Part shown: one piece after another, positions 6,201-23,680 of the stretch | How the letters are laid out: the number at the start of each line of letters is the position of its first letter | Position numbering within the stretch: position 1 is the first letter of the stretch | Assembly (NCBI GenBank): GCA_050300315.1 | Contig: JBNKXM010000001.1 | Span: 1 to 31,839 of the forward strand | Length of the DNA stretch: 31,839 nt | Source: Thalassotalea sp. | GTDB taxonomy: Bacteria > Pseudomonadota > Gammaproteobacteria > Enterobacterales > Alteromonadaceae | Reading direction: 5' to 3' | Program-made: the position numbers and the translations under genes | Notes under the pieces: model-generated | The model's input: the letters and a program-made list of their open reading frames with translations, nothing else | What the model was told of the DNA's origin: nothing | Databases searched by the model: none

Positions 6201-7322
6201 TTGAGCTATCATATCAATAGCAAAACCAAGCTCAACCGCTAATATTTTTGTCATCGCTCGAATGTTTGATGGAAAGTTTATTATAGCTCCGCCCATAAAC
6301 TTCATTGTTTCGTCTGTTATAGCTCCAAGAGCCATGAATTCTTTTCTAAAAACATCATTGGTTCCTGTTATAGCATTTTGAGCGTCATCAGACCATGCGC
6401 CCCATTGACCTCCCCATAATGCTATCTCTCGCGAAAAGTTGCCGAGTTCTCCAGTCAGCGATTCAATACCAGATCCTACAGTATCAACTGCATCATTTAA
6501 TATTTTTGCCTCACCAACAAACTTAGTGATGTTTGTTGTGGCATTTTCGATTGACTGTCCGAATGTTTTGGTTGTTTGGTCAGCTAGCTTTTGCGCTACT
6601 TGTTTATAGTCTTTTAGCGCATTAACCATTATTTCAGCGGTAATACCACCAGTTGCGGCAAACTCTCTAAGCTCACCGCGAGTCATTTTTAGCTTAGACG
6701 CAAGCGCGTCCATAATTTTAGGCGCACCCTCTGCAACAGAGTTAAATTCATCGCCACGCAATGCACCCGCCGCAAAACCTTGTGACAATTGTCTAATAGC
6801 GCCGCTAACTTCTGATATTGGCTTACCTCCAGCAACGAACAAGTTATTTAGCGTTTTGGTAATGCTAAGAATTTCACCTTGCGATGTACCTAAGTCTTTA
6901 GTTGATCTCGTTAACTGTGCGTATAAATCGACGGTATTGGTTAAATCAGATCTTGTATCTTTTGACAAAGTAAGTAGCTTTTCGCGAACATCAAGTAGCG
7001 CTTCTTCCGACTCAGTTACTTGTCTAATTTGCGAGTTAATATTTTTCCACGCGTCAGACTGTTTTGTTATCTCGCTTGTTAATCTTGCCGCACCTAATCC
7101 AGTCAACGCCGCACCAGCCGCGCCAATAGTGGCTTTTAGCGTGTTAAAACTTTTGTTGGTGTTACTAACAGATTTATTTATACGCTTTTCTGAGTGCTCG
7201 CCTTTTTTAGCGAGACTATCTAAGCTTTTTTCAGCATTTTTTAGCCCTGAAACGTCAGATTTAAAGCCTATTGTCGCCAAGTCAATCATAAAAATAAATA
7301 AACCTATTAAAATTTTATCCAT
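3261..7322 (-). CDS. Tail tape measure protein (alternative start at 7289, MIDLATIGF)
   Basis: 1353 aa, Ala/Gly-rich and helical; tape-measure N-terminal motif QLSQGFAAGALRGDEFNSVAEGAPKIMDALASKL; downstream of the tail chaperones. Confidence 0.93.
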   Translation of the reverse strand: MDKILIGLFIFMIDLATIGFKSDVSGLKNAEKSLDSLAKKGEHSEKRINKSVSNTNKSFNTLKATIGAAGAALTGLGAARLTSEITKQSDAWKNINSQIRQVTESEEALLDVREKLLTLSKDTRSDLTNTVDLYAQLTRSTKDLGTSQGEILSITKTLNNLFVAGGKPISEVSGAIRQLSQGFAAGALRGDEFNSVAEGAPKIMDALASKLKMTRGELREFAATGGITAEIMVNALKDYKQVAQKLADQTTKTFGQSIENATTNITKFVGEAKILNDAVDTVGSGIESLTGELGNFSREIALWGGQWGAWSDDAQNAITGTNDVFRKEFMALGAITDETMKFMGGAIINFPSNIRAMTKILAVELGFAIDMIAQHSKLIINAIKSPFVTIPTIVEAYIKAFGNVLGTRLAEIVEKVKIYGLEIKDALNPFDGDTFDFDAAIKNAENISKAMTNEYLQAAEEQILIAETARDEESAAAKESAEARILASKNARQSTIADILAERDATLSVYKKIESQAKITTAKVSKSIKSESKSFLKITEGMIKRIDKAFSDVWLNIINGSGNVFDSVIDGFKRMLAEMIHLAVTKPIVLQIGTALGLGGISSAANAGGILGGLGGLGGAFSSGFGGTNALLGAGSLSGAFSNIGSLFGGGEIAAGIGASLPIAAIAAAAAGIVDKITGGGLFGTSYKEKDRTLNLGFGSEGAFGSTLLKEQKKRSLFRGTKTRLTENDLDLSVIGDMFQSVQDSILDAAKLLDITTVTQTTTNFIRDFETDFKRSFETVTTTTETSVEDFINNFSSSFSKSIKGMSEEEIQAEISNWANKTTEQMVTAVFGGLAEEFAKESESSIQTIDRLIMNMQAFNQVTDTLGLDFGLIGEAAAKAATNVVEMVGGLDSLNQLTTQYFNSFYDQSEQFDFLTSSLNASFEELGQTMPATRDQFRALVDGLDLTTEAGQEMFAALMQLVPGMDAFFDSMENEYTNALNSAMSALKESVALEKDRAKEILNNARLAYDAEVSRINTQRDAVLAQESSAQQGLDLAKNALDASFEAQRNAIQDATNERISGLNAEISLLSGRKSSLSSVANDMRSLSQSLANAAGLVNDDIGAALASARRGDFSAAKGLSGQLPSASGFSSATEFKAAQALAKNQLAQISGLAGTRATDAERQIAVLEGISGYLSHQISQAQADNQEQLKALDDQYNSILGIDNTVLSLNDAITQYQEAQLQLDSLQTDSMLEALDNELAAANALLELAQQTYDDEISRLDDVILNAQAQLDALYGIDTSIMSVTDAINNLNDIIANPPEPTTTTEPVVDPAKKELDDNILAQNEEIRQNTKITNRLLQQMIGGGLDVRVEP

Positions 7323-7368
7323 TATAGCAACTGGTCAGAGCAGTTAAAAGGATAAGGTGTGCTATGCT
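7321..7368. promoter_or_regulatory. Divergent promoter module 1 with FadR-type box AACTGGTCAGAGCAGTT (7329-7345)
   Basis: One mismatch to AACTGGTCNGACCAGTT; plus-strand extended -10 TG-C-TATGCT (7363-7368); minus-strand TG-C-TATAAT (7326-7321). Confidence 0.75.
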
Positions 7369-7383
7369 TTTGTTATTGATTAA

Positions 7384-8175
7384 ATGAGGAGAATTAAAGT
7401 GGATATTAAAAACACAAAAGTAAGTTTAAAAGGTATGACAGAAGAAGTATTCAACGCGGTTATTGCTGTGGCGAAGGCGCATGGGCTTGATTGGATGTAT
7501 CCAGATGGTGGTACACACTATAACTTGCACAAAAAAAGAAGTTTTATGCTTTTTGATGAAGTTATCACTAGCGGAGGTGATGGTTTAGCGTACAAAGAAA
7601 TCCCAGTTGAAGACTTTCTATTTAGTCTAGCTCCTGATTGGGCTGTTGATATTAGATATTTTAATGGAGTTTATCATTATACCGACAGTGTTGGTAAATA
7701 TGTCGTTATTGGTGGCTCAGAGATTTATGAGTTCAACTTAAGTGGATTCAAGATAATCGCCACCCGTAAGCAAGAACAATGGCAACCTAAAGTTGGTGGT
7801 GAATGCTTGGTTAAGCACAATGGCGACTGGCACGAAACATTCATCGTAGGCATTAGCTCATATGGTAACTACTTTTACGAGTCGTCCAAGTTTGCAGAAA
7901 CCGTGTACGACGGTAATAACATAACTTGCTTCAAACCACTACCTGAACCAACAGAAGAAGAAAAGTTAATAGATATAGCTAAAAAGGATAACGACGATTT
8001 AGTTGTAACTGAGAATTTTACACGTGCCGTAAGTGCTTTTGTAAAAGCTGGCTACTGTAAAGTTGAGCCGATTAGTAGGGAAATGTTTTTACATCAGTCA
8101 TTAATACTGGATACATCAAATGATGACTTTAGTTGGTTGGCAGAAAACAACCACATCGTAGTTAAAAAGGACTAA
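7384..8175 (+). CDS. Hypothetical accessory protein
   Basis: 263-aa ORF, first gene of plus-strand cassette 1; no family recognised with confidence. Confidence 0.7.
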   Translation: MRRIKVDIKNTKVSLKGMTEEVFNAVIAVAKAHGLDWMYPDGGTHYNLHKKRSFMLFDEVITSGGDGLAYKEIPVEDFLFSLAPDWAVDIRYFNGVYHYTDSVGKYVVIGGSEIYEFNLSGFKIIATRKQEQWQPKVGGECLVKHNGDWHETFIVGISSYGNYFYESSKFAETVYDGNNITCFKPLPEPTEEEKLIDIAKKDNDDLVVTENFTRAVSAFVKAGYCKVEPISREMFLHQSLILDTSNDDFSWLAENNHIVVKKD

Positions 8176-8178
8176 CCC

Positions 8179-8613
8179 ATGATAACCAAATCACAATACT
8201 CACAATACAGGCAATACGCAAAATATAAAGCTGGTGAAGATTACGAGGATGTACTCCAAAATGCTTTACTCAGAGCGTGGAGATTCAAAGATAATCAAGA
8301 AGGTAACTTTGATGCTTGGATCAGGAAAATAGTGTTTAATGAGTCTAATCGACGTTTTGAAAGAAGTAGTCTAGACTATTCAGATATAGACATAGAGTTA
8401 TTAAATTATGACACAGTTAGCGTTAACGATGACGAAATAACACTTAATGAATGTATTTCCACGTTACCTGACAGAGCTATGCAGTCGGTCACGCTGAGAA
8501 TACAAGGCTACACGTCAATTGAAACGGCAAAAATAATGAATGTAAAAACAGGCACTATTTGCGCTATGTGGAATAAATCAAACCAATTAATGAGGGATTT
8601 TTACAATGACTGA
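8179..8613 (+). CDS. ECF-like RNA polymerase sigma factor (regions 2 and 4)
   Basis: Region 2-like EDVLQNALLRAW...FDAWIRKIVFNES; region 4-like TLPDR...LRIQGYTSIETAKIMNVKTGT. Confidence 0.75.
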   Translation: MITKSQYSQYRQYAKYKAGEDYEDVLQNALLRAWRFKDNQEGNFDAWIRKIVFNESNRRFERSSLDYSDIDIELLNYDTVSVNDDEITLNECISTLPDRAMQSVTLRIQGYTSIETAKIMNVKTGTICAMWNKSNQLMRDFYND

Positions 8614-8866
8614 ATCAATCGAAGAATTACAAGCGATATTGGATAATGCGCCAGACATGAAAGGCATTGAACATGATGGATTTTATTATTGCACAGAATA
8701 TGGCCTCGAATATTACATATACATAATTGACGGCAATGTTTTTGTTTATGATAAAGGCTGGCGAGAAGACAAAAAATGCAATTATCCTCTAAATGAGTTT
8801 TGGACTATCAGCTCACTAGCAGACATTAAACGAATAGTTGAATTAATGAAGGAGTTACAAAAATGA
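8606..8866 (+). CDS. Hypothetical protein
   Basis: 86-aa ORF overlapping its neighbours, consistent with translational coupling. Confidence 0.65.
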   Translation: MTESIEELQAILDNAPDMKGIEHDGFYYCTEYGLEYYIYIIDGNVFVYDKGWREDKKCNYPLNEFWTISSLADIKRIVELMKELQK

Positions 8867-9096
8867 GTATTTGCACATTAGAAATAATTAAGATTAGATT
8901 AGAAGTAGCAGAAGAGCATAGCCCGTTGTCTGTGTTTAGAACTTACAAAGACGGCGAGGTCGGGCTAGATTGTGTATTTACCACAATAGAAACAAAGGCG
9001 CGTATTGCGTCAGGCGATATTAGTTATGTTGGCACTTACACAAAACATACTGATATTTTTCAAGTTCAAGAAGAATTAAGACGAGCGATTTATTGA
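8863..9096 (+). CDS. Hypothetical protein
   Basis: 77 aa, ATGA overlap, AAGGAG Shine-Dalgarno upstream. Confidence 0.65.
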   Translation: MSICTLEIIKIRLEVAEEHSPLSVFRTYKDGEVGLDCVFTTIETKARIASGDISYVGTYTKHTDIFQVQEELRRAIY

Positions 9097-9106
9097 GGGG
9101 AATGAT

Positions 9107-9490
9107 ATGAATGAAGAATTACAAAAAGCATTAGTCGAGTTGTTAAACAAAACATTGAGCGGTATTGATTCAGCCGGTGAATTTATGGCAGCACAGATTC
9201 CTGACGTAGTGCAGCAACTATTAATGTGGCATAGTGTTTACAGTCTAATTGTTTCGTCAATGTGCCTAGCGTTACTTTTCTTTGCAATAAAGCTAGATAT
9301 AAGATTGTTTTACATCACCAAGGGTCGAGACGATGAGGATTTTCTTGTTATAGGGTATTTTTTAATAGGCTCCATTGTTAGGGCAATCCTTTACGCGTTC
9401 TTGCTGAGTGGTATATCTCTTGATTGGCTACAAATATGGCTAGCGCCTAAAGTTTGGCTTTTGGAGTACGCATCGAAGTTAACCAACTAA
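9107..9490 (+). CDS. Hypothetical membrane protein (two predicted TM segments)
   Basis: 127 aa, GAGGGG RBS, two long hydrophobic stretches. Confidence 0.7.
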   Translation: MNEELQKALVELLNKTLSGIDSAGEFMAAQIPDVVQQLLMWHSVYSLIVSSMCLALLFFAIKLDIRLFYITKGRDDEDFLVIGYFLIGSIVRAILYAFLLSGISLDWLQIWLAPKVWLLEYASKLTN

Positions 9491-9516
9491 AACAAAAAGC
9501 CCCATTCTAGGGGCTT
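9490..9516 (-). terminator. Intrinsic terminator between convergent genes (U-tract on the minus strand)
   Basis: AAAACAAAAAGCCCC-ATTCTA-GGGGCTT. Confidence 0.7.
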
Positions 9517-9928
9517 ACATATTCTTTAGTTTATCCATTTCCATCATCAAAGCGTTTGCTTGCTGTATTCTGTCCTCATCGGTCATTTCTGGTCGGTAAG
9601 GTGCGATGCAATTCATTTCATCAGCTTTATGCTTAAATGACACATAAGCGCGTGACATTTTTATGATTTGCTTTGACTCCCAAGGCTCAAGGTTTGAACT
9701 TGTCATAGTAGAGTATGATTGTAGCTCTTGCCATGTTAACGGCTCTGCGCCATTCATGCCACTTGAAAACATGCCGCACTCATGCCAATGATTAACCAAA
9801 TACTCACAGCCGCCTATATCTGGCATTCTTCGATGATACGTACCCTCTGCGAATTGCTCTACCCTTGCTTTAGGTTTTGTATCATCTTTGTGTTTTTTAG
9901 GTCTGCCATGCAACCACGAAAGCTGCAT
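9515..9928 (-). CDS. Tail assembly chaperone T portion, expected as a G-T fusion via -1 frameshift
   Basis: Lies between the G chaperone and the tape measure gene; its frame is open upstream through the slippery site (KFYHGLSESLVLYAMQLSW). Confidence 0.75.
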   Translation of the reverse strand: MQLSWLHGRPKKHKDDTKPKARVEQFAEGTYHRRMPDIGGCEYLVNHWHECGMFSSGMNGAEPLTWQELQSYSTMTSSNLEPWESKQIIKMSRAYVSFKHKADEMNCIAPYRPEMTDEDRIQQANALMMEMDKLKNM

Positions 9929-9936
9929 AGCATAAA

Positions 9937-9970
9937 GGACTAAGCTTTCACTTAGTCCGTGATAAAATTT
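9937..9970 (-). promoter_or_regulatory. Programmed -1 ribosomal frameshift signal
   Basis: In-frame A AAT TTT heptamer (9970-9964), 5-nt spacer, perfect 8-bp hairpin GGACTAAG-TGAAAG-CTTAGTCC (9958-9937). Confidence 0.8.
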
Positions 9971-10392
9971 GCTTTATCTTCGAAAAACTCGTTCGCTTGT
10001 TCTCTAATGTCTTTAAACTTAAGATACAAATTAAACGCATTTTCGTAGGTGCAAACAAGTGGCGATTTGTCACCCGGCAAAATAAGATTTTCAAAACCAG
10101 TTGTGACAGTCGCAAGCTTTTTGCAGATCGCCTTTGTCACATCGTCAATCTTGAAATCTTCTTCTTTATTGCCATTGAGCTTTTTATTCACTTCTTTGCG
10201 GCGATTTTCTTTTACTGACTTTTCGACAAATTCAGCGAATACGTCAGAGTCAGCACCAAGCATTGTGATCTTAATTGGTTTTTTCTCTTCTTTGTCGGCA
10301 TATACGTGCATTTTAGTTTTAGGGTGCACTAAATGAAGTTCAGAGCCTTTATTCGCTTGTGAAACCGTGTCAAAAACATTTAAATCAAACAT
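9952..10392 (-). CDS. Tail assembly chaperone (G-like)
   Basis: 146 aa between the major tail and tape measure genes; KPIKITMLGADSDVF motif; ends at a slippery site. Confidence 0.8.
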   Translation of the reverse strand: MFDLNVFDTVSQANKGSELHLVHPKTKMHVYADKEEKKPIKITMLGADSDVFAEFVEKSVKENRRKEVNKKLNGNKEEDFKIDDVTKAICKKLATVTTGFENLILPGDKSPLVCTYENAFNLYLKFKDIREQANEFFEDKANFITD

Positions 10393-10486
10393 GATAAATT
10401 TACCCGTTAATTATCCCGATTAAATGACGTGGCAAGCTGCATCGGGTTAAACAGCGATTCGGTTACGTTAACCTAGCCACTTGCGC

Positions 10487-10533
10487 ATAATACCACTGGT
10501 CGGAGCAGTTAATCAATAAAGGTGTGTTATAGT
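10487..10533. promoter_or_regulatory. Divergent promoter module 2 with FadR-type box CACTGGTCGGAGCAGTT (10494-10510)
   Basis: Plus-strand TG-T-TATAGT (10528-10533); minus-strand TTGATT-N18-TATTAT flanking the box. Confidence 0.75.
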
Positions 10534-10562
10534 TGGTTTTATTTAAATTAACGGGAAATAAA

Positions 10563-10793
10563 ATGAATGAAGAAGATTTAACTCAAGATTATGTGGACAC
10601 AATACACCCTTTGGTTATGAGAGAATGGGGTGAATTGTTAAAGAAAAGTGGTAAAAGTGAATTGATGTTTAAAATTAGCCATGATGGCATGCAATTTATT
10701 GCGCAATACCAAATGATGAAAGAAGTTGTAGAATCTCGCGGCTTTACGATGCCTGAAATGTTTTATGACGGCACGAAAATAACATTAAGTTAA
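10563..10793 (+). CDS. Hypothetical protein (76 aa; start revised from 10533)
   Basis: ATG at 10563 after GGGAAATAAA; the track start at 10533 falls in the -10 element. Confidence 0.65.
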   Translation: MNEEDLTQDYVDTIHPLVMREWGELLKKSGKSELMFKISHDGMQFIAQYQMMKEVVESRGFTMPEMFYDGTKITLS

Positions 10794-10822
10794 AACAAAA
10801 AGCCCTCAACTGAGGGCTTTTT
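10792..10822. terminator. Bidirectional intrinsic terminator
   Basis: AAAACAAAAAGCCCTCA-AC-TGAGGGCTTTTT between convergent genes. Confidence 0.8.
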
Positions 10823-10826
10823 ACAA

Positions 10827-11276
10827 TTACTGAATATCAATCGGCTTAGTGTTAATGCCAATAGTTGAACTTGACATGATAACGTTGTCGATTGAGCCAG
10901 GCGTTTTATCGTAGCCGAATACGTATCCCTGGAACGCATCAACGCGACCGCCAGGATATACAACTTTGTGCGAGTGAACAGTTAAGTTAGCCGCGCCACC
11001 AGATGCAGCTTCAAGCAATAACTGTCCTGCATCTGTTTCATCGTAACCCATACCGACAGTCATAGAGCCGTAGTTGGTTGTACCTTTGAATTTCTTCAAG
11101 ATACCATCAGCTAAGTTAGTGAAGTTAACTTCTGTCTGTGTTGCGCCGTAAGTTGACAATGATTCTACTTCGCCCACTTCCGTCCATGTTAGCGCGTCAT
11201 AGCCCAACTTGTCATTGGTGGCTGGTAGCGCTGCCGAGATGTAGTATTGTACACCCGTGCTTGTTTGTAATGCCAT
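10827..11276 (-). CDS. Major tail (tube) protein
   Basis: 149 aa; WTEVGEVESLSTYG...KKFKGTTNYGSMTV...YDETDAGQLLL; position before the chaperones. Confidence 0.85.
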   Translation of the reverse strand: MALQTSTGVQYYISAALPATNDKLGYDALTWTEVGEVESLSTYGATQTEVNFTNLADGILKKFKGTTNYGSMTVGMGYDETDAGQLLLEAASGGAANLTVHSHKVVYPGGRVDAFQGYVFGYDKTPGSIDNVIMSSSTIGINTKPIDIQ

Positions 11277-11319
11277 AATTAAAAACCTCTGTATTAATAC
11301 AATTTTACCCGATACTCAC

Positions 11320-11368
11320 ATAATACCCTACTGGTTAGACCACTTCAATTGTTTGGGTGTGTTATGAT
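11320..11368. promoter_or_regulatory. Divergent promoter module 3 with FadR-type box TACTGGTTAGACCACTT (11329-11345)
   Basis: Plus-strand TG-T-TATGAT (11363-11368); minus-strand TTGAAG-N17-TATTAT. Confidence 0.75.
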
Positions 11369-11396
11369 GGTTTGGTTGAATGTTAAGGAGATAAAA

Positions 11397-11735
11397 ATGA
11401 CAGAACTAACAGATTTAGAGATTTGCACAAGAATTGCTGAGATTGAGGGGTTTACTGATATTTCAGTTTATTCTGGTGTCGATTCAGGCGGAACTTTAAT
11501 GGTTAGCAAATTTGAAATACTAACAGATGATGGAAAAGGGTTTCCATTGAAAATACATAATTACAACCCACTAACTGACGATGCGTTGTGTTTTAGGTTG
11601 ATGGTTAAGCATAAGATTGATTTTGTTAACTTTGATACTGACATGTACGCTGGTGTAGTAAAGGCTAAAACATTTCAAAACAGGTCACCTAACCGCGCAA
11701 TATGCCTTTCAATTATAGAGGCTAATAAGGAGTAA
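11397..11735 (+). CDS. NinX/DUF2591-like phage protein (start revised from 11349)
   Basis: AAGGAG RBS before ATG 11397; LTDLEICTRIAEIEG...YNPLTDDALCFRLM...NRAICLSII pattern. Confidence 0.6.
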   Translation: MTELTDLEICTRIAEIEGFTDISVYSGVDSGGTLMVSKFEILTDDGKGFPLKIHNYNPLTDDALCFRLMVKHKIDFVNFDTDMYAGVVKAKTFQNRSPNRAICLSIIEANKE

Positions 11736-11739
11736 TAAA

Positions 11740-11910
11740 ATGATATGCAAATCAGTTTCGATTTTACCTAACCGTGATTCATACAATACATACTGTGAAT
11801 GCGTTATTTTTGAAGTTAATGATGAATCTATAACTATTGTCTTGGGTGATAGACGAATCGAATTCGATCCTGAAGATGTTAGAAAGTTGTTGTTAATATC
11901 TGAAATTTAA
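11740..11910 (+). CDS. Hypothetical protein, 56 aa (not in the ORF track)
   Basis: AAGGAG RBS; MICKSVSILPNRDSY...LLLISEI*. Confidence 0.6.
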   Translation: MICKSVSILPNRDSYNTYCECVIFEVNDESITIVLGDRRIEFDPEDVRKLLLISEI

Positions 11911-12378: not shown

Positions 12379-12425
12379 ATAATATCACTGGTTAGACCAC
12401 TTGAGCAATAAAGGTGTGGTATATT
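12379..12425. promoter_or_regulatory. Divergent promoter module 4 with FadR-type box CACTGGTTAGACCACTT (12386-12402)
   Basis: Plus-strand TG-G-TATATT (12420-12425); minus-strand TTGCTC-N18-TATTAT. Confidence 0.75.
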
Positions 12426-12457
12426 GAATATTCATTAACAGAAAGGGTAATAAAGCA

Positions 12458-12685
12458 ATGAAAAAACTATCAAATAGAGCGCCTAAATTAACCAAGAAAG
12501 CAAGAAAATTATTAAAAGGCGGTAACGAAATGGTTAAGCGCAGTATGGAGTGCAAAAAGGTTGATGATTATCACGGCAAAACGCCAGTTTACGCCAATAT
12601 TAAACAAAAACCGCATGAGCCAGATAATTTTGTCAAAGTTCAATGCGGCGTACCTTTTGTTCGCCCAGAGCTTCACGGCATTTAA
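12458..12685 (+). CDS. Hypothetical basic protein
   Basis: 75-aa ORF, sole gene of cassette 4, between promoter and terminator. Confidence 0.65.
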   Translation: MKKLSNRAPKLTKKARKLLKGGNEMVKRSMECKKVDDYHGKTPVYANIKQKPHEPDNFVKVQCGVPFVRPELHGI

Positions 12686-12686
12686 T

Positions 12687-12717
12687 AAAACAAAAAGCCC
12701 TATTAACCTAGGGCTTT
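12687..12717 (-). terminator. Intrinsic terminator between convergent genes
   Basis: AAAACAAAAAGCCCTA-TTAACC-TAGGGCTTT. Confidence 0.75.
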
Positions 12718-14114: not shown

Positions 14115-14154
14115 CACTGGTTAGACCACACAAATGATAAAAGTAGTATATCAT
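14115..14154. promoter_or_regulatory. Divergent promoter module 5 with FadR-type box CACTGGTTAGACCACAC (14115-14131)
   Basis: Plus-strand -10 TATCAT (14149-14154) at the same spacing as the other modules; opposing promoter less clear. Confidence 0.65.
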
Positions 14155-14186: not shown

Positions 14187-14378
14187 ATGTCGAGGCAAAG
14201 AGTGTACATATCAAACCAAAAGCCGAAAGATATGACTATAGAATCGTTTGAAGAGCTTGAGTATAAAGAGCTTGGTGTAATATATTGTGATATTGAAGAT
14301 AAAACAACTTGTGATGCTCCTACACAAAAACAAAAAATTAAACCATGCTTAGAAGGCAAACACGGTAAAAAGGAGTAG
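14187..14378 (+). CDS. Hypothetical protein
   Basis: 63 aa, AAGGAG RBS. Confidence 0.6.
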   Translation: MSRQRVYISNQKPKDMTIESFEELEYKELGVIYCDIEDKTTCDAPTQKQKIKPCLEGKHGKKE

Positions 14379-14383
14379 TTATA

Positions 14384-14599
14384 ATGAATATACTCGACAC
14401 GATTATTACAAAAAATGGAACCTTTAATGTTGGTGATAAATTAATAGGTGAAAGGGATGCTTCTCACAAACTGGGAATTTCAAGAGCTGAACTGAGAAAA
14501 GCTCAAGACGAATTAAGCATAAAAGGAATTATCAGTAAAGAGCACGGTAAAGTAAGGGTTATATTAAAAGATATTTACACAGGTGAGGAGGAAACATAA
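14384..14599 (+). CDS. Stand-alone GntR-family winged-HTH resembling the FadR DNA-binding domain
   Basis: F..G..L..ER..S...G.SR..LR.....L...G....EHGK pattern; AAGGAG RBS; no effector domain. Confidence 0.8.
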   Translation: MNILDTIITKNGTFNVGDKLIGERDASHKLGISRAELRKAQDELSIKGIISKEHGKVRVILKDIYTGEEET

Positions 14600-14695
14600 A
14601 TGAACAAAGAATTTGAAGAATTGCACTTTGTTTGGGTTAAGCGCTTATCGCTTGGAATTATTTTTTGTATTAGTCTCTTGGTTTGGTTGGGGTGA
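14600..14695 (+). CDS. Small membrane peptide, 31 aa (not in the ORF track)
   Basis: GAGGAGG RBS; TAAATG junction with the wHTH gene; MNKEFEELHFVWVKRLSLGIIFCISLLVWLG*. Confidence 0.55.
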   Translation: MNKEFEELHFVWVKRLSLGIIFCISLLVWLG

Positions 14696-14698
14696 TTT

Positions 14699-14776
14699 AT
14701 GAATAAATTTAAAACAATCTTGTTGTGGTCTGCGTCATTTGCTATGGGTATTGCTTTTATATGGTGGGTTTTATGA
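14699..14776 (+). CDS. Small membrane peptide, 25 aa (not in the ORF track)
   Basis: MNKFKTILLWSASFAMGIAFIWWVL*; ends in an ATGA overlap with the next gene. Confidence 0.5.
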   Translation: MNKFKTILLWSASFAMGIAFIWWVL

Positions 14777-16005
14777 AACTACTAGAAAAAATAGACGATC
14801 ATATACTTAATGATTACATGACTGAGCTATGGCAAGATCGTGTTAAGTTAATGCGCGAGATTGGCATTAAACCAACAGCTAGAAAGTTAGGTATAAACAG
14901 CAGAAACATGATAAGAGCCATGAATAACGCTGTTAATAAGGCAAGCGACGATGGTTATATTGTTGATATGCCGCCAATGATTATCGCCAACAATAAAAAG
15001 CTTGGAAAAATGACCACGCAAGCTGACGCGCAAGGCAACATCAAGCAAATATGGTATAGGCAGAATGATTTTGATATCGACGCCATAACTGACGCAATAC
15101 AAAACGCTTGCATTGATTTACCTCAAGTCCTACCTAAAAAACCAAAAGGTTTAGTTGCATATAACAAGGATGTTATCCCTTTCTTTCACATAGGTGATGG
15201 ACATATTGGCATGCTATCTTACCGCAAAGAAGTTGGAACTGATTTCGATATCGATATTGCTGTTAAAGATTTATGGTCAGCAATGTCAATACTAATAGAC
15301 GAGTCACCAGACTGTGAGCGCTGTGTTATTCAAGATATGGGCGACATGACCCATTACGAGAATGAACAGCAAACAACTGAAGCTAGCGGTCACGCTTTAG
15401 ATTGTGATGGTCGATACACAAAGATGATCAACGCCTATGTTGATACAATGCTTTTCATTATCAATAAGGCGCTAGAAAAGTTTAAGTTTGTCGACGTGAT
15501 CATTAACCAGGGAAATCATTCGCGCAAAAATGACAAGTGGATGAATATATTCTTGCGCCATACGTATGCTAATGAAAGTCGTGTCAATATACTGTCAAAC
15601 GAAAGCGTTTATATCCCATATCGCATGGGTAACACGTTTGTCATGTGCCATCATAGCGATAAGTGCAGACCGTTAAAACTTGCTCAGGTAATGGCTACGG
15701 ATTACCGTCACGACTTTGGTGAGGCGTTGTACAAGTATATCGACATAGGTCATATTCACCATAACATGGTATTAAAAGAGCATCCGGCAGTAACAATCGA
15801 GTCATTCAACCAGCTAGCAACAGCAGACAAGTACGCGCATGATGGCGGTTGGCGTTCTCGCAGTTGCTTAGCCGTTGTATTTCGCTCTAAGACTTATGGC
15901 GAGGTCGGAAGACACACATTACCACTTGAGCGAGTTCGAGATATTATCGAAAACGTAAAAGCTGGCACCAACTCAAACAAAAGAACGGAGGTTTATTCGG
16001 TATGA
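14773..16005 (+). CDS. Calcineurin-like metallophosphoesterase with an N-terminal HTH-like segment (start revised from 14725)
   Basis: Metal-binding motifs IGDGHIG, DMGDMTH, QGNHS, HHSD, GHIHH; N-terminal REIGIKPTARKLGINSRNM. Confidence 0.75.
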   Translation: MKLLEKIDDHILNDYMTELWQDRVKLMREIGIKPTARKLGINSRNMIRAMNNAVNKASDDGYIVDMPPMIIANNKKLGKMTTQADAQGNIKQIWYRQNDFDIDAITDAIQNACIDLPQVLPKKPKGLVAYNKDVIPFFHIGDGHIGMLSYRKEVGTDFDIDIAVKDLWSAMSILIDESPDCERCVIQDMGDMTHYENEQQTTEASGHALDCDGRYTKMINAYVDTMLFIINKALEKFKFVDVIINQGNHSRKNDKWMNIFLRHTYANESRVNILSNESVYIPYRMGNTFVMCHHSDKCRPLKLAQVMATDYRHDFGEALYKYIDIGHIHHNMVLKEHPAVTIESFNQLATADKYAHDGGWRSRSCLAVVFRSKTYGEVGRHTLPLERVRDIIENVKAGTNSNKRTEVYSV

Positions 16006-16163
16006 GCCACTACGACGAACAAATAGAAGCTGACAAACTCAGACAACAACTTACTGAGCTAGACAGAGAAATTAAGCGTAACATTGAGCAAAACGCCATG
16101 TTACATAAAGAAAGAGCAGCGTTAAAGCGTGAATTATGGGAGTTGAAGGGTGATAAATTATGA
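16002..16163 (+). CDS. Small coiled-coil protein, 53 aa (not in the ORF track)
   Basis: GGAGG RBS; ATGA overlaps at both ends; heptad pattern LRQQLTELDREIKRNIEQNAMLHKERAALKRELWEL. Confidence 0.6.
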   Translation: MSHYDEQIEADKLRQQLTELDREIKRNIEQNAMLHKERAALKRELWELKGDKL

Positions 16164-16573
16164 AATACATGGGAAGCAAAGAAAGAATAGCAAAGCATAT
16201 TTTGCCTATTATCTTAAAAGATAGAAAGGAAGTCCAGTGGTATGTAGAGCCTTTTGTTGGCGGAGCTAATATGATTGATAAGGTTGACGGCAATCGTATT
16301 GGGGCTGATAGTAATAAGTATTTAATTTCTTTACTGCAGCATTGTGAAAAACAGTTAAGCCATGATTTACCTTCTAGGATTTATGAGGATGATTACAATC
16401 ATGTAAAAAACAATAAATCGGTTTATTCTGATTTTATAGTTGCCCACATAGGCTTTAACGCTAGCTTTGGCTCTAAATGGTTTGGTGGCTACGCTAGACC
16501 TAGAAAGGCTACCGGATACGATAGAGATTTGGTTTGCGGTAAAAATTCTCTTGTAAAAAAATGCACGCAGTAA
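16160..16573 (+). CDS. DNA adenine methyltransferase (Dam/D12 class), N-terminal part of a frameshifted gene
   Basis: KYMGSK and YVEPFVGGANM (motif I); frame breaks at an A7 run (16555-16561). Confidence 0.8.
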   Translation: MKYMGSKERIAKHILPIILKDRKEVQWYVEPFVGGANMIDKVDGNRIGADSNKYLISLLQHCEKQLSHDLPSRIYEDDYNHVKNNKSVYSDFIVAHIGFNASFGSKWFGGYARPRKATGYDRDLVCGKNSLVKKCTQ

Positions 16574-16884
16574 AAGGTGTAAGATTTATCGAATCAAGCT
16601 ACAGCGAGTTGGACATTCCACCCAACAGCATTATATATTGCGACCCACCATATGAAGGAACAACAAAATACAAAGATGATTTTAACCATATCTTATTCTG
16701 GCAATGGTGCAGAGAAAAGGCAAAAGAAGGTCATCAAGTGTTTATTAGCGAATATAACGCTCCAGATGATTTTGTTTGCATATGGCAGCAAGAGTTAAAT
16801 GTTTCAGTCGCTAAAAACGGAAAACATAAGAAAGCTATTGAGAAACTATTTGTTCATGAGTCTCAGAGTGTGATTAACCCCTAA
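16561..16884 (+). CDS. DNA adenine methyltransferase, C-terminal catalytic part in the -1 frame
   Basis: IIYCDPPY (motif IV), VFISEY, EKLF. Confidence 0.8.
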   Translation: MHAVKGVRFIESSYSELDIPPNSIIYCDPPYEGTTKYKDDFNHILFWQWCREKAKEGHQVFISEYNAPDDFVCIWQQELNVSVAKNGKHKKAIEKLFVHESQSVINP

Positions 16885-18095: not shown

Positions 18096-18096
18096 C

Positions 18097-18135: not shown

Positions 18136-18159
18136 TGTGTTTACCTCTTGTTGTTTTAT

Positions 18160-18747: not shown

Positions 18748-18757
18748 TTTGTACCTC

Positions 18758-18787
18758 AAAAAAATAACCGCCCAGTTAAGGGCGGTA
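18758..18787 (-). terminator. Intrinsic terminator after the capsid operon
   Basis: ACCGCCC-N6-GGGCGGT hairpin followed by a U-rich tract on the minus strand. Confidence 0.75.
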
Positions 18788-18792
18788 AATTA

Positions 18793-18960: not shown

Positions 18961-18970
18961 AGTTAACCCC

Positions 18971-20137
18971 TTACGCTAAGTTGTACAAGCGAGCCATGTG
19001 AGTTTTAGACTGGCGCACTTCCATTGCAAAGTCACCTAATACACGTACTCGCTCGCCGTCTTGCCCTGGCTGTGTAGCGTCTTTAGTTTGCCATGCGCCA
19101 GAATCAGAAGCGTTATTCGCAGCCATAGGAACAACAGAAATATAGTTCTTGTTGAATAACATTAACTCATCGTCAGCTAAGTTAGTATCAACAACGATAG
19201 TTGTTGCTGTGCCAAGTAACGGAATGTCAGACGGTAACATAGTTACTGAGCCTTCATCATTAGACCAGTCGGCTAAGCGTTGGCTTGAATAGTTAGCAGA
19301 GATTAGCGCGTTTAATTCACGAGCTTTGTCAATGCCAACAGCGATAGTGTCAGCCATGCCGCCACGTTTAACGATTTCAGCATTAAGGTTGTTGATTAAA
19401 TCTAATGTTAACACGCCAGCAGATGCGTCAGAAGTGATCGCACCAGCTTGGTCGAAGAAGTAACGCAAGCCGCCTGTATAGGTGTATTCAGTACCCGAGA
19501 TGGTTGATGTTGCTTTACGCCCACGAATTAACGCGCGATCCATTTGAATAACTAATTGACGGATACGCTCAGACACTTGGAATTGCAAGTCGTTGGTGTT
19601 TCCCCATTGCATTGTAGACAATGCACGACGAGACATTTCAACTGCTGTGTCCATAGTCTGAAAGAAGTTTTCAACTTTTTCAGGTTGGAAAATTCCATCG
19701 TTTTCAGCTAATGAGTTTTCACCGCGAGATGTTGCATCAATTGTTAATACAGCAGCGTCTGCAATATCGGCAGTAGTAGTACCACCAAACCCACGAACAA
19801 CAGTCAAGGCGTCGGCGACAACAGCAGTTACTTGGATAACCTCGTCTGAGCCTGTAGCCGAGAACGTCATACCTACGCGGAATTTAGCACCGTCACCGGT
19901 AGCAACATTAATAGTTGTTGCTGCGGCTAAAGCTGCACCGTTAGCAGTTGATGATGTCGCATCAATGCGAAAATCCAACCATCCCATTTTATAACCGTCA
20001 TACGCTTCGACTGGTGAGCCAAAGTTTACGACAGATAAAATACCTGTTCGGTTAGATCGTGCAATTTCAAATGCACCATTAATAATTTCTTGGTTTAGCG
20101 CGGCAGCTAATACGCCACTTGTTACTTCGTTAGCCAT
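18971..20137 (-). CDS. Major capsid protein (SU10/DUF5309-like, with an inserted beta domain)
   Basis: 388 aa after the scaffold gene; ENFFQTMDTAVEMSRRAL...YTGGLRYF...EVRQSKTHMARLYNL pattern. Confidence 0.88.
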   Translation of the reverse strand: MANEVTSGVLAAALNQEIINGAFEIARSNRTGILSVVNFGSPVEAYDGYKMGWLDFRIDATSSTANGAALAAATTINVATGDGAKFRVGMTFSATGSDEVIQVTAVVADALTVVRGFGGTTTADIADAAVLTIDATSRGENSLAENDGIFQPEKVENFFQTMDTAVEMSRRALSTMQWGNTNDLQFQVSERIRQLVIQMDRALIRGRKATSTISGTEYTYTGGLRYFFDQAGAITSDASAGVLTLDLINNLNAEIVKRGGMADTIAVGIDKARELNALISANYSSQRLADWSNDEGSVTMLPSDIPLLGTATTIVVDTNLADDELMLFNKNYISVVPMAANNASDSGAWQTKDATQPGQDGERVRVLGDFAMEVRQSKTHMARLYNLA

Positions 20138-20152
20138 GTTATAGCCCTTCTG

Positions 20153-20890
20153 TTAGTTAATTTTTAAACTTTCTTTAAGATAAGCATTCAAGTCGCCTTT
20201 TTTCTTTGCTTCTTGAGCTGCTTTATTTTGGTTCTGGGCACTGCCGCGATCATTTGAACCATTTGCCAAACCGCTACTGGTAGTAGTGAATTCAGCTTTA
20301 ATAAGACGGGCAAAGCGCTTTTCTTTTTTGATTAAAGCGATAAAACCGTCTTTGTCGACACTTAAAGCACTGCCTTGAACGTCGTGATAAATTTCTTTTC
20401 CTGTATTCGGATCTACTTTCACCCGATTACGAATTAATTCTGAGATAACCTCGCCATCTTCTTTGTCAATGCCTAGTGATAACCCAATGTTATCCGCGAT
20501 TGACTCAGCTTTTTGAGCGGCGCTTTTTTCTGCAAATTCAGTTGTTACGTTTTGCCGCTCTTCTTCACGAACTCGCTTTTCTAAATCTAACATTTGTTCT
20601 TGATAGCGCTTTTCGATTGCATCAACGTCTTTATTGTTTTTAGCATCTTCTAGCGCTTTAGCTTTTGCGGCCTCAATCTTTTCAGCTTGACTCGCCTCAA
20701 ACTCGCTTAATTTTGTCTGTGTTTCGTTAAACTTATTTCGATATTCTTCTTTTTCAGCTTTCGCATTCTTCATCGAATTGTATAACGCAACACTTCCTTT
20801 ATCTGCATAACCTTTTTTACCATCTAGCTCGTGTTCAACAAATTGTTCACGCATACTTTCTGGTAATGTTTCTAAATCTTCTACAAACAT
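20153..20890 (-). CDS. Capsid scaffolding protein (start revised from 20971)
   Basis: Charged coiled-coil protein directly upstream of the capsid gene; the track start overlaps the promoter module. Confidence 0.8.
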   Translation of the reverse strand: MFVEDLETLPESMREQFVEHELDGKKGYADKGSVALYNSMKNAKAEKEEYRNKFNETQTKLSEFEASQAEKIEAAKAKALEDAKNNKDVDAIEKRYQEQMLDLEKRVREEERQNVTTEFAEKSAAQKAESIADNIGLSLGIDKEDGEVISELIRNRVKVDPNTGKEIYHDVQGSALSVDKDGFIALIKKEKRFARLIKAEFTTTSSGLANGSNDRGSAQNQNKAAQEAKKKGDLNAYLKESLKIN

Positions 20891-20942
20891 AATCACTGAC
20901 CTGTTTTGGTTTAAATTTGCGACACTGCCACATTTAACTCCT

Positions 20943-20989
20943 ATAATACAACTGGTCAGACCACTATGCAAGTAAGCGTGTGCTATAGT
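20943..20989. promoter_or_regulatory. Divergent promoter module 6 with FadR-type box AACTGGTCAGACCACTA (20950-20966)
   Basis: Plus-strand TG-C-TATAGT (20984-20989); minus-strand TTGCAT-N17-TATTAT. Confidence 0.78.
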
Positions 20990-21018
20990 TGGTTTTTAAT
21001 GTTTGGTTGGAGAGAATT

Positions 21019-21207
21019 ATGATATATAGATTAGACGAGATCGTACAAACACCAAAAAAAGATAAATTTGGTGTCAATAGGACTGGACGTGTCGTTGATA
21101 TAAGCTATAGGCACATAGACACATTTACTAAATGCATAGTCTTAAAGATAGAAACTGATTTTGGATTTTATTTTTTCACAGCTGAAGAACTTGATGATGT
21201 TAACTAA
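21019..21207 (+). CDS. Hypothetical protein (start revised from 20989)
   Basis: GGAGAG RBS before ATG 21019. Confidence 0.6.
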   Translation: MIYRLDEIVQTPKKDKFGVNRTGRVVDISYRHIDTFTKCIVLKIETDFGFYFFTAEELDDVN

Positions 21208-21376
21208 TGGTTTACAAATGACCTGCTACATATCAAAACAAATAGCCATACACTGCGACGAGCCAAAGCCGTTAATATGTCCTAATTGCGGAAGTGAGCA
21301 CGGTACTATTAACAACGCAGGAGATCGACTCGAATGTGACTGCGGCTCATCGTTTTGGTTGGATGACCTAGATTAA
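21197..21376 (+). CDS. Small zinc-ribbon-like protein (start uncertain)
   Basis: CPNC...CDC motif. Confidence 0.5.
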   Translation: MLTNGLQMTCYISKQIAIHCDEPKPLICPNCGSEHGTINNAGDRLECDCGSSFWLDDLD

Positions 21377-21389
21377 TTGAGGGGGATTA

Positions 21390-21575
21390 GTGGGTAGCGG
21401 ACTAAACAGAAAAACAAGAAAAGTCGCATTAACAGAAGAGCAAAAGCGATTTTTGTTAGAAAATTCTAAAAAATACACTGTCGACGAACTGTGTGAAATG
21501 ATGGGCTTAAAGCCCGTTAAAATCATGAGCGAATGTTCGCGTATCGGGTGTGGGTATATGACGAGGAGGAAGTAA
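21390..21575 (+). CDS. Small HTH-like DNA-binding protein
   Basis: GTG start with GAGGGGG RBS; LTEEQKRFLLEN...TVDELCEMMGL.PVKI pattern. Confidence 0.55.
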   Translation: MGSGLNRKTRKVALTEEQKRFLLENSKKYTVDELCEMMGLKPVKIMSECSRIGCGYMTRRK

Positions 21576-21576
21576 A

Positions 21577-22086
21577 ATGAAAATAAACAGAGCTTGGGCT
21601 ATGCCAAATAAAAATACATTTAGCATAAAGCCGATAAATGAACTAATACAGCGATATATAAATGACCGAGTTTCAATATCAATAGACCCTTTTGCAAATA
21701 CAAATAGGTTGGCTAGGTTTTGTAATGACTTAGATCCGCAGTATGGCACAGAATTTTGTATGGATGCTTTAGATTTTTTAAAATCATTTGATGACAATAG
21801 TGTCGATCTTGTCTTGTTTGATCCTCCATATAGTCCAAGACAAGTTAGTGAATGTTATAAATCATTAGATGTGACAGTAAATATACAGACAACACAAGCC
21901 AGTTTTTGGGGTAATATGAAAAAGGAGATAGAAAGAATTACCATGAGCAATGGAATAGTAATTACTTTCGGATGGAATAGCGGCGGCATAGGGAAAACAA
22001 AAGGATTTAAAATAAAAGAAATATTAATGGTTGCGCATGGGGGTTGGCATAACGACACCATATGCACAGTAGAGGTTAAGGATTAA
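21577..22086 (+). CDS. Compact DNA adenine methyltransferase
   Basis: IDPFAN (SAM-binding-like) and LVLFDPPYSPRQ (motif IV); 169 aa. Confidence 0.8.
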   Translation: MKINRAWAMPNKNTFSIKPINELIQRYINDRVSISIDPFANTNRLARFCNDLDPQYGTEFCMDALDFLKSFDDNSVDLVLFDPPYSPRQVSECYKSLDVTVNIQTTQASFWGNMKKEIERITMSNGIVITFGWNSGGIGKTKGFKIKEILMVAHGGWHNDTICTVEVKD

Positions 22087-22090
22087 AACC

Positions 22091-23584
22091 CTAACCATCA
22101 ACAGGCGGCAAGTTCAAATTGCCGCCATCATTTTCTAGCTCTGCAATGGTGTCTTCAGCATCTTGAATATCCCAACCTCCATCAGCTAACTGTTTGGCAA
22201 CTTGATCACGAGTTCTTACGCCGTTGTTGTAAAGCTCGAGCAATACTTTAACTTCTTCCACTTGCATTTTAGGTGTTGCAAAGTCGCGAGGCAGTGTGAC
22301 AACAGCTTGATCGTACTGGTGAACTTCTTCTGGAGAAACCAACCCTTCGAACATAGCACAATAAGCTAATAGCTTTTCAAGGCCGTTCTCGACGCTTGTC
22401 GCAATCGTATCAAGTAAAGCGTTTTGTGATGTGGCAACAATATTAGCCTCTGTAGCTGTCATATTGCTAGCCTCCGCACCACTCTTGCCGCCCATTTCAG
22501 CTACTTGCTTTTTAGATTGTTCAAAGTACCAGTGGAAATCTTCCATTTCAGCTTGTGCGCTAACAACGTCAACTTCTACATTGTTTGGCAATCCATTCAT
22601 CGAGTAAGGACCCGACTCTATATTGTCGCGACCGTTAACTTCTTCGAATAAATCTTTATCACCTGTTCGCCAGCCTTTCGTGTAAGTTGTTGGCAATAAA
22701 GCTTTTTGGCATTCTTTATACAATGCGCTTGTTCTGTACCGATATAAAACTTTGTCGCTGATACCGTAAAGATAGCCGAGTGAACAAGGAAGCTTACCTG
22801 GTTGTGTTTCTTCGTCAGCGATAATGTCACCCGGGATAAACTTTAGCGGCTTACCGTTAACTAGATGATAATTTCTATCACCTAAAACACCGTCACCATT
22901 AGCGCCATAAACAATCTTTTGCTGGTAGTAATCGCCGTTATCGTCAAGTGCCAAAATGAGATAGCTTTGCACTTCTTGCGCAACATAATTGGTTGAGTCG
23001 AACACCTCGCCGCGCTCAAGCAGCATGATAAACGATAACTGCATAGCGCCATTGATGCGCGTAAAGTTCCAGTTGACGATGTTTTCACGAGAATATAACT
23101 TAGCAACCGCTTTTGGGTTAAGCGCCTTTAAATCTGCCAAGCTAATACTATCAAGATTAATTCCGCTTAAACCTTGATAATCAGCCAGCCAAAACTTAAA
23201 TTTAACTTGCAGCACATCATTAACGATTGATTCTGCGATATTTTTTAGTGATGCGCCGTCACCGTCCATATCGTCGAGCATGTAATTTAGCTTGTCTGGC
23301 AATTCAGCAGTGATGTCATCAAGTCGCATCTTACCGATTAATTCACGGCGCGTATCGTCAGTGTCGTTATCGAACTCAGCATTTAAAATATAATCATCGT
23401 AACGGGCTATTGCTCGTTTAGATGTCGTATCAGTTTGCGATGGATGTGGCAAATACTTATAGCGCTCACGTTTAACCTTGTTAGCGCCCTCAACACAATC
23501 ACGTACTTGCTCAATAGCTTTAATAGAGTAATTATAATTTTCGTGGGTGTTAACGCGAATACCGTTAATGCTATTAGTTGTCAT
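22091..23584 (-). CDS. Portal protein (DUF4055-like; start revised from 23605)
   Basis: About 500 aa; KYLP...RY..Y...A.F.N.T..T...L.G...D.DGDG pattern; upstream of the scaffold and capsid genes. Confidence 0.85.
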   Translation of the reverse strand: MTTNSINGIRVNTHENYNYSIKAIEQVRDCVEGANKVKRERYKYLPHPSQTDTTSKRAIARYDDYILNAEFDNDTDDTRRELIGKMRLDDITAELPDKLNYMLDDMDGDGASLKNIAESIVNDVLQVKFKFWLADYQGLSGINLDSISLADLKALNPKAVAKLYSRENIVNWNFTRINGAMQLSFIMLLERGEVFDSTNYVAQEVQSYLILALDDNGDYYQQKIVYGANGDGVLGDRNYHLVNGKPLKFIPGDIIADEETQPGKLPCSLGYLYGISDKVLYRYRTSALYKECQKALLPTTYTKGWRTGDKDLFEEVNGRDNIESGPYSMNGLPNNVEVDVVSAQAEMEDFHWYFEQSKKQVAEMGGKSGAEASNMTATEANIVATSQNALLDTIATSVENGLEKLLAYCAMFEGLVSPEEVHQYDQAVVTLPRDFATPKMQVEEVKVLLELYNNGVRTRDQVAKQLADGGWDIQDAEDTIAELENDGGNLNLPPVDG

Positions 23585-23613
23585 CGTAGAGCGCCTTAAA
23601 TTCAATTACTCTA

Positions 23614-23680
23614 ATTGTAAGGCTTTTGTTGTATTGGTTCAACTGGTCGGAGTTGTTGTTCGCTATTTATGTGTTAAGGT
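23614..23680. promoter_or_regulatory. Divergent promoter module 7 with FadR-type box AACTGGTCGGAGTTGTT (23641-23657)
   Basis: Plus-strand TG-T-TAAGGT (23675-23680); minus-strand TTGAAC-N17-TACAAT, whose -35 overlaps the box edge. Confidence 0.7.

Follow-up and report, generated by a model that had tools for sequence, protein, structure and literature searches.

FadR-type boxes at the divergent junctions of a marine siphophage suggest a two-way promoter module that may be read by a host regulator

When the virion genes of a phage lie on one strand and are interrupted again and again by short gene cassettes on the other, what decides which of the two sets is read? The question is raised by a 31,839-nucleotide stretch of DNA assigned to Thalassotalea sp. 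(GenBank assembly GCA_050300315.1, contig JBNKXM010000001.1, positions 1 to 31,839 of the forward strand; hereafter the window), which forms one contig (C1) of a 2.7-Mb, 728-contig assembly. Its map of open reading frames (ORFs), annotated with PHROG, shows terminase, head morphogenesis protein, portal, scaffold, capsid, adaptor, head closure, tail terminator, tail completion, tail tube, chaperone, tape measure and distal tail genes on the minus strand, a series that is broken up by seven plus-strand cassettes. This layout has exactly seven minus/plus divergent junctions, and each of them carries a single 17-bp box that resembles the operator of the lipid-sensing regulator FadR. The pattern ACTGGTYRGASNNS has seven matches in the window, all on the plus strand, compared to 0.02 expected from dinucleotide-preserving shuffles, and no further copy is found across the assembly. 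The original prediction, made from the letters of the window, had named these seven 17-mers and placed one at every divergent junction in the same orientation, and both statements proved correct.

The boxes are box 1 (AACTGGTCAGAGCAGTT, 7329..7345, with one mismatch to AACTGGT-N3-ACCAGTT), box 2 (CACTGGTCGGAGCAGTT, 10494..10510), box 3 (TACTGGTTAGACCACTT, 11329..11345), box 4 (CACTGGTTAGACCACTT, 12386..12402), box 5 (CACTGGTTAGACCACAC, 14115..14131, at the head of a cassette that encodes the small FadR-like protein described below as mini-FadR), box 6 (AACTGGTCAGACCACTA, 20950..20966) and box 7 (AACTGGTCGGAGTTGTT, 23641..23657, a fabA-type variant). We took the FadR operator to be a 17-bp dyad of the form AACTGGTC-N-GACCAGTT with the core TGGT-N3-ACCA and 14 specified positions, to which boxes 1 to 4 and 6 show one or two mismatches, box 7 three and box 5 four. 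Five sites with at most two mismatches in 32 kb compare with an expectation of ca. 0.2. The left half-site ACTGGT is invariant across all boxes and the right half is variable. Box 7 differs by two nucleotides from the Shewanella fabA site that has been proven by electrophoretic mobility shift assay (EMSA), and it has the same odd right half as the EMSA-validated FadR sites of both E. coli fabA (AACTGATCGGACTTGTT) and Shewanella fabA (AGCTGATCGGAGTTGTT) (PMC4537474). Judged by their sequence, the boxes have the dyad of a FadR operator and resemble experimentally bound sites, and the right halves of boxes 1, 2 and 7, which look degenerate, would represent not decay but the activating fabA-type operator with its left half improved to TGGT.

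On the plus strand, a TAnnnT hexamer starts 17 nt past the box at all seven junctions and is preceded by TGn at six of them (GTA at box 5), while the hexamers at the -35 position match TTGACA at none or one of six bases. Counted from the TAnnnT hexamer, the box spans about -46 to -30 of a -35-less extended -10 promoter. The predicted rightward elements are TGcTATGCT 17 nt after box 1 (7360..7368), which would drive cassette 1, followed by TGtTATAGT (10525..10533) for cassette 2, TGtTATGAT (11360..11368) for cassette 3, TGgTATATT (12417..12425) for cassette 4, TATCAT without TGn (14149..14154) for cassette 5, TGcTATAGT (20981..20989) for cassette 6 and TGtTAAGGT (23672..23680) for cassette 7. 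The hexamer 17 nt after every box, the TGn in six cases and the position of the box over the -35 region had all been foreseen from the sequence. A generic scan for sigma-70 promoters revealed no overall enrichment in this region (47 found, 53.9 expected), so the case is built on the repeated composite, and promoter-like hexamers by themselves would not carry it. The fabA promoter is acted upon by FadR from the -40 region (PMC3462791), and the phage boxes seem to reproduce this fabA-type arrangement, with a site over the -40 region and upstream of a weak or absent -35 element.

On the minus strand, the virion genes appear to require promoters at the same junctions. Terminator-like hairpins stand at convergent cassette ends, a two-way one (both strands) at 9497..9516 behind cassette 1 and similar ones at 10795-10824, 12694-12717, 18767-18786 and 22104-22126, which makes each virion-gene block look like a separate transcription unit in need of its own promoter. 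Near-consensus candidates of the sigma-70 type with the box inside the promoter spacer, at about -32 to -14, are found at five of the seven junctions. These would serve the tape-measure block (TGcTATAAT with its -10 at 7326..7321, promoter 7321..7349, box 1 at about -31 to -15), the tail chaperone (TTGATT-N18-TATTAT, 10487..10516, box 2 at about -30 to -14), the major tail protein or tail tube (TTGAAG-N17-TATTAT, 11320..11348, box 3 at about -32 to -16), tail completion (TTGCTC-N18-TATTAT, 12379..12408, box 4 at about -30 to -14) and the scaffold, capsid and neck genes (TTGCAT-N17-TATTAT, 20943..20971, box 6 at about -30 to -14). The annotated starts of the tape-measure ORF (7322) and the scaffold ORF (20971) overlap promoter or box and are incompatible with transcripts from these promoters, so the true starts are likely the in-frame ATGs at 7289 and 20890, which agree with the predicted transcripts and with where the family alignments begin. 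At box 7, the portal promoter (TTGAAC-N17-TACAAT, 23614..23642, minus strand) has the box upstream at about -50 to -34, where it abuts the -35 element and would not occlude it. At box 5, a leftward promoter whose spacer encloses the box was not found; a minus-strand TGaTATACT (14153..14145) overlaps the plus-strand -10 and would place the box at about +7 to +23. The leftward anatomy described in the original prediction, namely TTGnnn-N17/18-TATTAT at boxes 2, 3, 4 and 6, TGnTATAAT at box 1 and a -35 element touched by box 7, is present as described. Its further claim that binding would switch the portal gene off finds no occlusion in this anatomy. Overall, its picture of FadR operators that are fabA-like on one side and embedded in promoter spacers on the other stands for most boxes and fails on the leftward side of boxes 5 and 7.

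Does the presumed host have a protein to read such sites? The binned host (Thalassotalea-like) encodes a FadR of 236 amino acids (C425:570-1280; 383 bits against TIGR02812 with a cut-off of 249) that is 95% identical to Thalassotalea FadR, on which basis the bin is taken as Colwelliaceae; the G+C content is 40.0% for the assembly and 39.6% for the contig. FadR-like boxes lie directly upstream of genes for an acyl-CoA dehydrogenase (two sites), two enoyl-CoA hydratases, a fabH-like protein and FadR itself. By our estimate, the 16 host sites with at most two mismatches are matched by ca. 17 expected by chance, so it is only their placement beside fatty-acid genes that argues for these particular sites being real. 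The copy upstream of fadR, TTCTGGTACAATCAGTT (C425:515), suggests autoregulation of the host gene, and a PdhR-type box, AATTGGTATTACCATTT, is found upstream of a host PdhR-like gene (G000:C380:2604). We rejected PdhR as the model for the phage sites: the PdhR-type site of the host has TTGGT where the boxes have CTGGT, and the wing of mini-FadR has the HGK of FadR.

Of the known systems, the fabA promoter is the closest to the phage module. Upstream of host fabA, AACTGTTCGGAGTTGTT is followed by 18 nt and TAAAGT; this box differs from box 7 by a single nucleotide and lies at -47 to -31, compared to -46 to -30 for the phage boxes when counted likewise. The motif NACTGYTCRGAGTTGTT precedes fabA in 27 of 30 further genera of the host family (one genome per genus), and in 27 of 30 genera the FadR-type box is directly followed by a FabR-type palindrome, TAGCGTACAAGTGTTCGCTA, and TAAAKT (G000:C146:4376-4420; loci L267-L295). 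Like the FadR-activated fabA and fabB promoters of E. coli, Shewanella and Vibrio, the phage promoters carry a 17-bp FadR-type site with the asymmetric right half ...TCGGAGTTGTT directly upstream of a poor -35 element. They differ in that the spacer is 18 nt in the host but 17 nt in the phage, where it ends in an extended -10, in that the FabR palindrome filling the fabA spacer is absent from the phage spacers, and in that the left half of the phage site is improved to consensus TGGT, the site serves at the same time as spacer for a divergent promoter and at least seven copies occur per 32 kb. The GGTGTG of the phage spacer was considered as a FabR half-site and dropped as the alignment is out of register.

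The module is not confined to this phage. A composite pattern of the box, 13 N and GTGTGnTAT retrieved 10 contigs from IMG/VR with ca. 0.2 expected by our own estimate, a looser pattern retrieved 27 stretches, and box-N17-TGnTAnnnT is common to about 20 IMG/VR contigs; a scan of IMG/VR for the bare 14-mer yielded single chance matches only, and the strict composite had no match in the genome contig collection. Three relatives are complete or nearly so: G002 (43.9 kb with terminal repeats), G001 (43.1 kb) and G004 (42.0 kb). Each has seven or eight composites, and many composites of the relatives are perfect dyads such as AACTGGTCAGACCAGTT, with perfect ones in G004 and G001. Across 25 phage sequences with 92 oriented boxes, TGnTAnnnT stands at exactly 17 nt in 45 cases and at 16 nt in one, with no other offset within 60 nt, and the -10 on the opposite strand floats 1 to 4 nt from the box wherever a leftward gene exists. 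Phage G002, whose structural proteins are mostly 45% to 74% identical to those of the window, has a virion operon chopped in the same way, in which boxes occupy the syntenic junctions (after tape measure, chaperone, tail tube, head closure, scaffold and portal) and an extra box ahead of its exonuclease, single-stranded DNA-binding protein and resolvase genes. The contents of the cassettes vary between relatives while the box positions are constant, and the box itself remains constant while portal identity drops to 42% to 47% (G001, G004) and phage G+C spans 37% to 47%.

None of the three complete relatives encodes a recognizable GntR-type protein or mini-FadR in searches with Pfam (E up to 1), a family profile and local hmmsearch, the last of which scored 100 to 125 bits on seven positive controls. 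A protein of the sigma-70 family (Sigma70_r2) is likewise absent from G001, G002 and G004, and no small non-structural protein is common to them. The constancy of the box and the lack of GntR-type or sigma proteins in these genomes point to a conserved binder common to all infections, and host FadR fits this description. Among cultured phages, a megablast search with 8 kb gave no match. The nearest are Vibrio phages BUCT006 and 1.151.O, with capsid identities of 60% to 63%, in which the boxes were not found, and Alteromonas phage R9Y1 has one candidate box only. We note that a FadR box is missing from just one divergent junction of G002 (L139 10450-10570), which has four copies of TTACCCAAAA ahead of a helicase-primase operon and may serve as an origin or be bound by a different regulator. 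The G002 cassette behind the equivalent of box 2 (L140 8341-9672, corresponding to G002 28341-29672) encodes a 443-aa protein resembling phosphoadenosine phosphosulfate reductase (phrog_2302).

The phage of the window has, in addition, a candidate binder of its own. Cassette 5 encodes a stand-alone GntR/FadR-type winged helix-turn-helix protein of 71 amino acids without an effector domain (14384..14599, plus strand, behind box 5), which we call mini-FadR. It matches Pfam GntR with an E value of 3.7e-5 and 23.8 bits, under the 27-bit cut-off, its best sequence matches in PDB are PdhR and the N-terminal domains of Vibrio and E. coli FadR, and it is 37% identical to the DNA-binding domain of host FadR over 46 residues. 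The DNA-contact residues of FadR are R35, T44, R45, T46, T47, R49 and H65 (PMC4259882). In the mini-FadR family, R35, R45, R49 and H65 (as well as G66) are identical and invariant, T44 is replaced by S, T46 by A and T47 by E, and W60 of FadR is not retained in mini-FadR. An AlphaFold2 model from a 20-sequence alignment that included the host FadR N-terminal domain reached a mean confidence (pLDDT) of 71, compared to 48 for an unusable single-sequence model, and its top Foldseek matches were V. cholerae FadR bound to DNA, V. alginolyticus FadR and E. coli FadR with TM scores of 0.67 to 0.72, though this fold is generic for the family. Mini-FadR ends after the wing and a short acidic tail, at 71 compared to 236 amino acids, without the all-helical C-terminal FCD domain for effector binding and dimerization. 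By its sequence, it is a FadR-like DNA-binding domain and not a regulator of the FadR subfamily.

A word-based homologue search returned only the protein of the window itself, and an exhaustive search brought out short homologues of 71 to 82 amino acids with the same invariant residues, some of them with FadR-like N-termini. One of their contigs is closely related to this phage, one belongs to a P22-like phage and one is a lambdoid-like contig of 52 kb; the other three are fragments. Without exception, these contigs carry FadR-type boxes with TAnnnT at 17 nt, at a density of ca. 2 per 10 kb compared to 0.03 in the host genome and 0.11 in ca. 1 Mb of unrelated viral loci. This co-occurrence suggests that mini-FadR and the boxes belong to one circuit, yet boxes also exist without mini-FadR. 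A tblastn search of cultured phages with the mini-FadRs gave no match and a cluster look-up returned no names, and they appear to form a metagenome-only family. Its conserved acidic C-terminal tail, KDIxxxEE(H/E)(F/Y/T), is not seen in FadR or PdhR and could contact RNA polymerase or serve dimerization. Two long metagenomic proteins, P0003 (1147 aa) and P0005 (744 aa), have matches to mini-FadR in 10 and 6 separate stretches, respectively, and are apparently tandem winged-helix arrays.

We propose that the boxes are operators for a FadR-type winged-helix dimer within a compact two-way promoter module and that host FadR is the binder that selects between its two sides, a reading to which we give a probability of roughly 0.55. 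The two promoters at a junction lie back to back with their -10 elements about 35 to 40 bp apart, so that one RNA polymerase would exclude the other and a dimer on the box would be placed to choose between them. Host FadR, present from the onset of infection and binding DNA when long-chain acyl-CoA is low, would occupy the boxes, aid RNA polymerase at the rightward promoters of the accessory or early cassettes as it does at fabA, and block the overlapping leftward virion promoters. Once FadR leaves, either upon binding acyl-CoA or through titration by box copies that multiply in phage replication, the leftward promoters would win. Mini-FadR, without an acyl-CoA domain, would most likely bind the same boxes and make the circuit partly independent of the amount of host FadR and of lipid state. 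Three features favor rightward activation: a sequence of the fabA type, a position like that at fabA and a rigid spacing of 17 nt. Leftward occlusion at five junctions is favored by the box lying in the spacer. A lipid-sensing regulator of the host thus probably helps to decide which gene set is read. We extend this only tentatively, at odds well below even, to the full scenario that a marine siphophage group and some unrelated phages run their gene expression on borrowed host FadR, with boxes copied from fabA, cassettes switched on and at least five virion promoters off, release by acyl-CoA or titration, and an override or extension by mini-FadR.

How far could the phage protein account for the boxes by itself? 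Mini-FadR, made from the box-5 cassette, might be the sole relevant binder and shut off or sustain the cassette promoters, which would make it an autoregulated temporal switch. The location of its gene behind a box, the retained FadR residues R35, R45, R49, H65 and G66 and the dense box-N17-TAnnnT composites on six independent contigs of different phage backbones all speak for this, and an invariant ACTGGT left half beside a variable right half would suit a protein without the dimerizing domain of FadR. We nevertheless consider it unlikely, since G001, G002 and G004 maintain their composites without any mini-FadR homologue, the variable right halves match the fabA-type FadR site instead of decaying at random, T46, T47 and W60 of FadR are not retained, and consensus FadR sites in a cell that contains FadR would be bound by FadR anyway. 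A different question is whether bound FadR activates at all. If it merely repressed in both directions, the boxes would form a nutrient gate at which low acyl-CoA silences the phage and fatty acids permit transcription of cassettes and virion genes alike. Strong rightward extended -10 elements can function with neither a -35 nor an activator, the -35 position lies under the box, and FadR represses most of its regulon (PMC4537474). What makes this distinctly improbable to us is the contrast between the rightward spacing, 17 nt in 45 of 46 cases, and a leftward -10 that floats by 1 to 4 nt, the pattern to be expected if an activator that depends on contact works on the right and the left side is simply occluded. 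In addition, what the commonest phage box copies, in sequence and in geometry, is the activating fabA site and not a repressor site of the fad type.

That the box is instead a promoter element for a phage-modified RNA polymerase, directed by the sigma factor of the extracytoplasmic function (ECF) type encoded in cassette 1 or by a MotA-like adaptor, seems barely credible. The box does begin with AAC like ECF -35 elements and replaces the -35 at a fixed spacing like the T4 MotA box, and the phage does encode such a sigma factor, but none was found in complete relatives with the same promoters, the dyad symmetry of the box, which is perfect in G004 and G001, fits a dimeric helix-turn-helix protein and not a sigma factor, no ECF-type -10 is found at 16 to 17 nt from the AAC, and the -10 that follows the box is of the standard extended sigma-70 kind. 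The sites could also act as a decoy that soaks up host FadR during replication, derepresses fatty-acid degradation and lowers fabA expression, with promoter control being secondary. At least seven consensus-grade sites per phage genome indeed face a handful of good host sites; however, a decoy needs neither the fixed 17-nt spacing to a -10 nor a placement at every junction. We regard it as very unlikely to be the main role of the boxes, though it is compatible with selection by host FadR and does not exclude it.

Several observations weigh against host FadR as the selector. Mini-FadR co-occurs with the boxes in unrelated phages, so that the phage protein could be the main binder here, and the relatives without it may encode a box-binding protein that we did not recognize. 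The good extended -10 elements of the rightward promoters may need no activator, in which case a protein at -46 to -30 could repress, and boxes 5 and 7 do not fit a geometry that turns virion genes off. Most IMG/VR relatives were retrieved by the composite itself and are ascertained in this sense, with only the extra sites in whole genomes being independent. The link between contig and host is made by binning and equal G+C, and the phage sequence was matched in DNA sequencing runs only and in no RNA run.

Cassette 1 (7384-9490, plus strand) begins with a 263-aa ORF (7384-8175) followed by the ECF-type sigma factor (8179..8613, 144 aa, Sigma70_r2 and r4_2, with SigE and SigW as best PDB relatives), which may add a late layer of regulation in this phage only, and three small ORFs. 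Cassettes 2, 3, 4 and 7 span 10533-10793, 11349-11910, 12458-12685 and 23712-24631, respectively, cassette 5 (14187-16884) encodes orf63, mini-FadR, an exonuclease and a split Dam methylase, and cassette 6 (20989-22086) has a DNA methyltransferase at its end, all on the plus strand. The split gene in cassette 5 is a D12-class (Dam-like) adenine methyltransferase at 16160-16884 made of two overlapping ORFs of 137 and 107 amino acids that match the N- and C-terminal parts of the family; the second methyltransferase lies at 21577-22086. The head-morphogenesis ORF (718 aa, 24609-26765, minus strand) matches its family only at residues 5-252, beyond which it has short matches to helicase and ribonucleotide-reductase families and an intein-like look, and another 263-aa ORF lies within it on the opposite strand (25110-25901, plus strand). 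In the spacer between a 660-aa ORF and its upstream gene (30287-30356, minus strand), a terminator-like hairpin is followed by a direct repeat, CTATCAG-N9-CTATCAG, immediately before the start codon. The phage genome is incomplete, with about a quarter missing from the contig, and the remainder was not found in the assembly.

The usual view is that virulent phages rely on factors of their own to time their genes. A repeated, rigid promoter module that copies a host metabolic promoter together with its FadR site would instead couple early and late phage transcription to the fatty-acid status of the host, and it would offer a rationale for an architecture in which the virion operon is chopped by antisense cassettes. 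For marine ecology, it would also suggest that phage production in Alteromonadales could be modulated by the availability of lipids, e.g., when algae bloom. The mini-FadRs define a family of FadR mimics that have no sensor domain and are seen in metagenomes only. As both the operator and the DNA-binding domain of FadR are conserved, the effect could be examined even in E. coli. Our full-text literature searches turned up no description of FadR sites in phage promoters and none of a mini-FadR in a phage; the small RNA co293 of e14, which targets fadR, is a different matter.

The module also has conceptual relatives. Bacillus phage phi29, as reportedly described by Meijer and Salas, has boxes for Spo0A, a global regulator of its host, that repress early promoters. 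There as here, several host-regulator sites in a virulent phage link promoters to the physiological state of the host, though regulator, signal and host are different and phi29 has no repeated two-way module at every junction. The stoperators of mycobacteriophages L5 and Bxb1 are likewise many short, dispersed, partly asymmetric operators in intergenic regions with one orientation relative to transcription, but they affect elongation, and the protein that binds them is a temperate phage's immunity repressor. The boxes described here are embedded in promoters, match the operator of a host regulator and persist in relatives without such a phage regulator, as G001, G002 and G004 have the sites and neither mini-FadR nor another GntR-type protein in place of a cognate repressor. 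The middle promoters of phage T4 share a conserved box in place of the -35 element at a fixed distance from a good -10. The MotA box, which is non-palindromic, has its center near -30 and is recognized by a phage activator that works jointly with AsiA; no MotA- or AsiA-type proteins were found here. Finally, vibriophage VP882 carries VqmA, a phage copy of a host regulator. Pid of phage P22 acts on the GntR-type regulator DgoR (PMC3573128). In both, as here, a phage imitates or interferes with one specific host transcription factor, but unlike VqmA-type copies, mini-FadR consists of the DNA-binding domain only and has lost the ligand domain instead of keeping it for eavesdropping.

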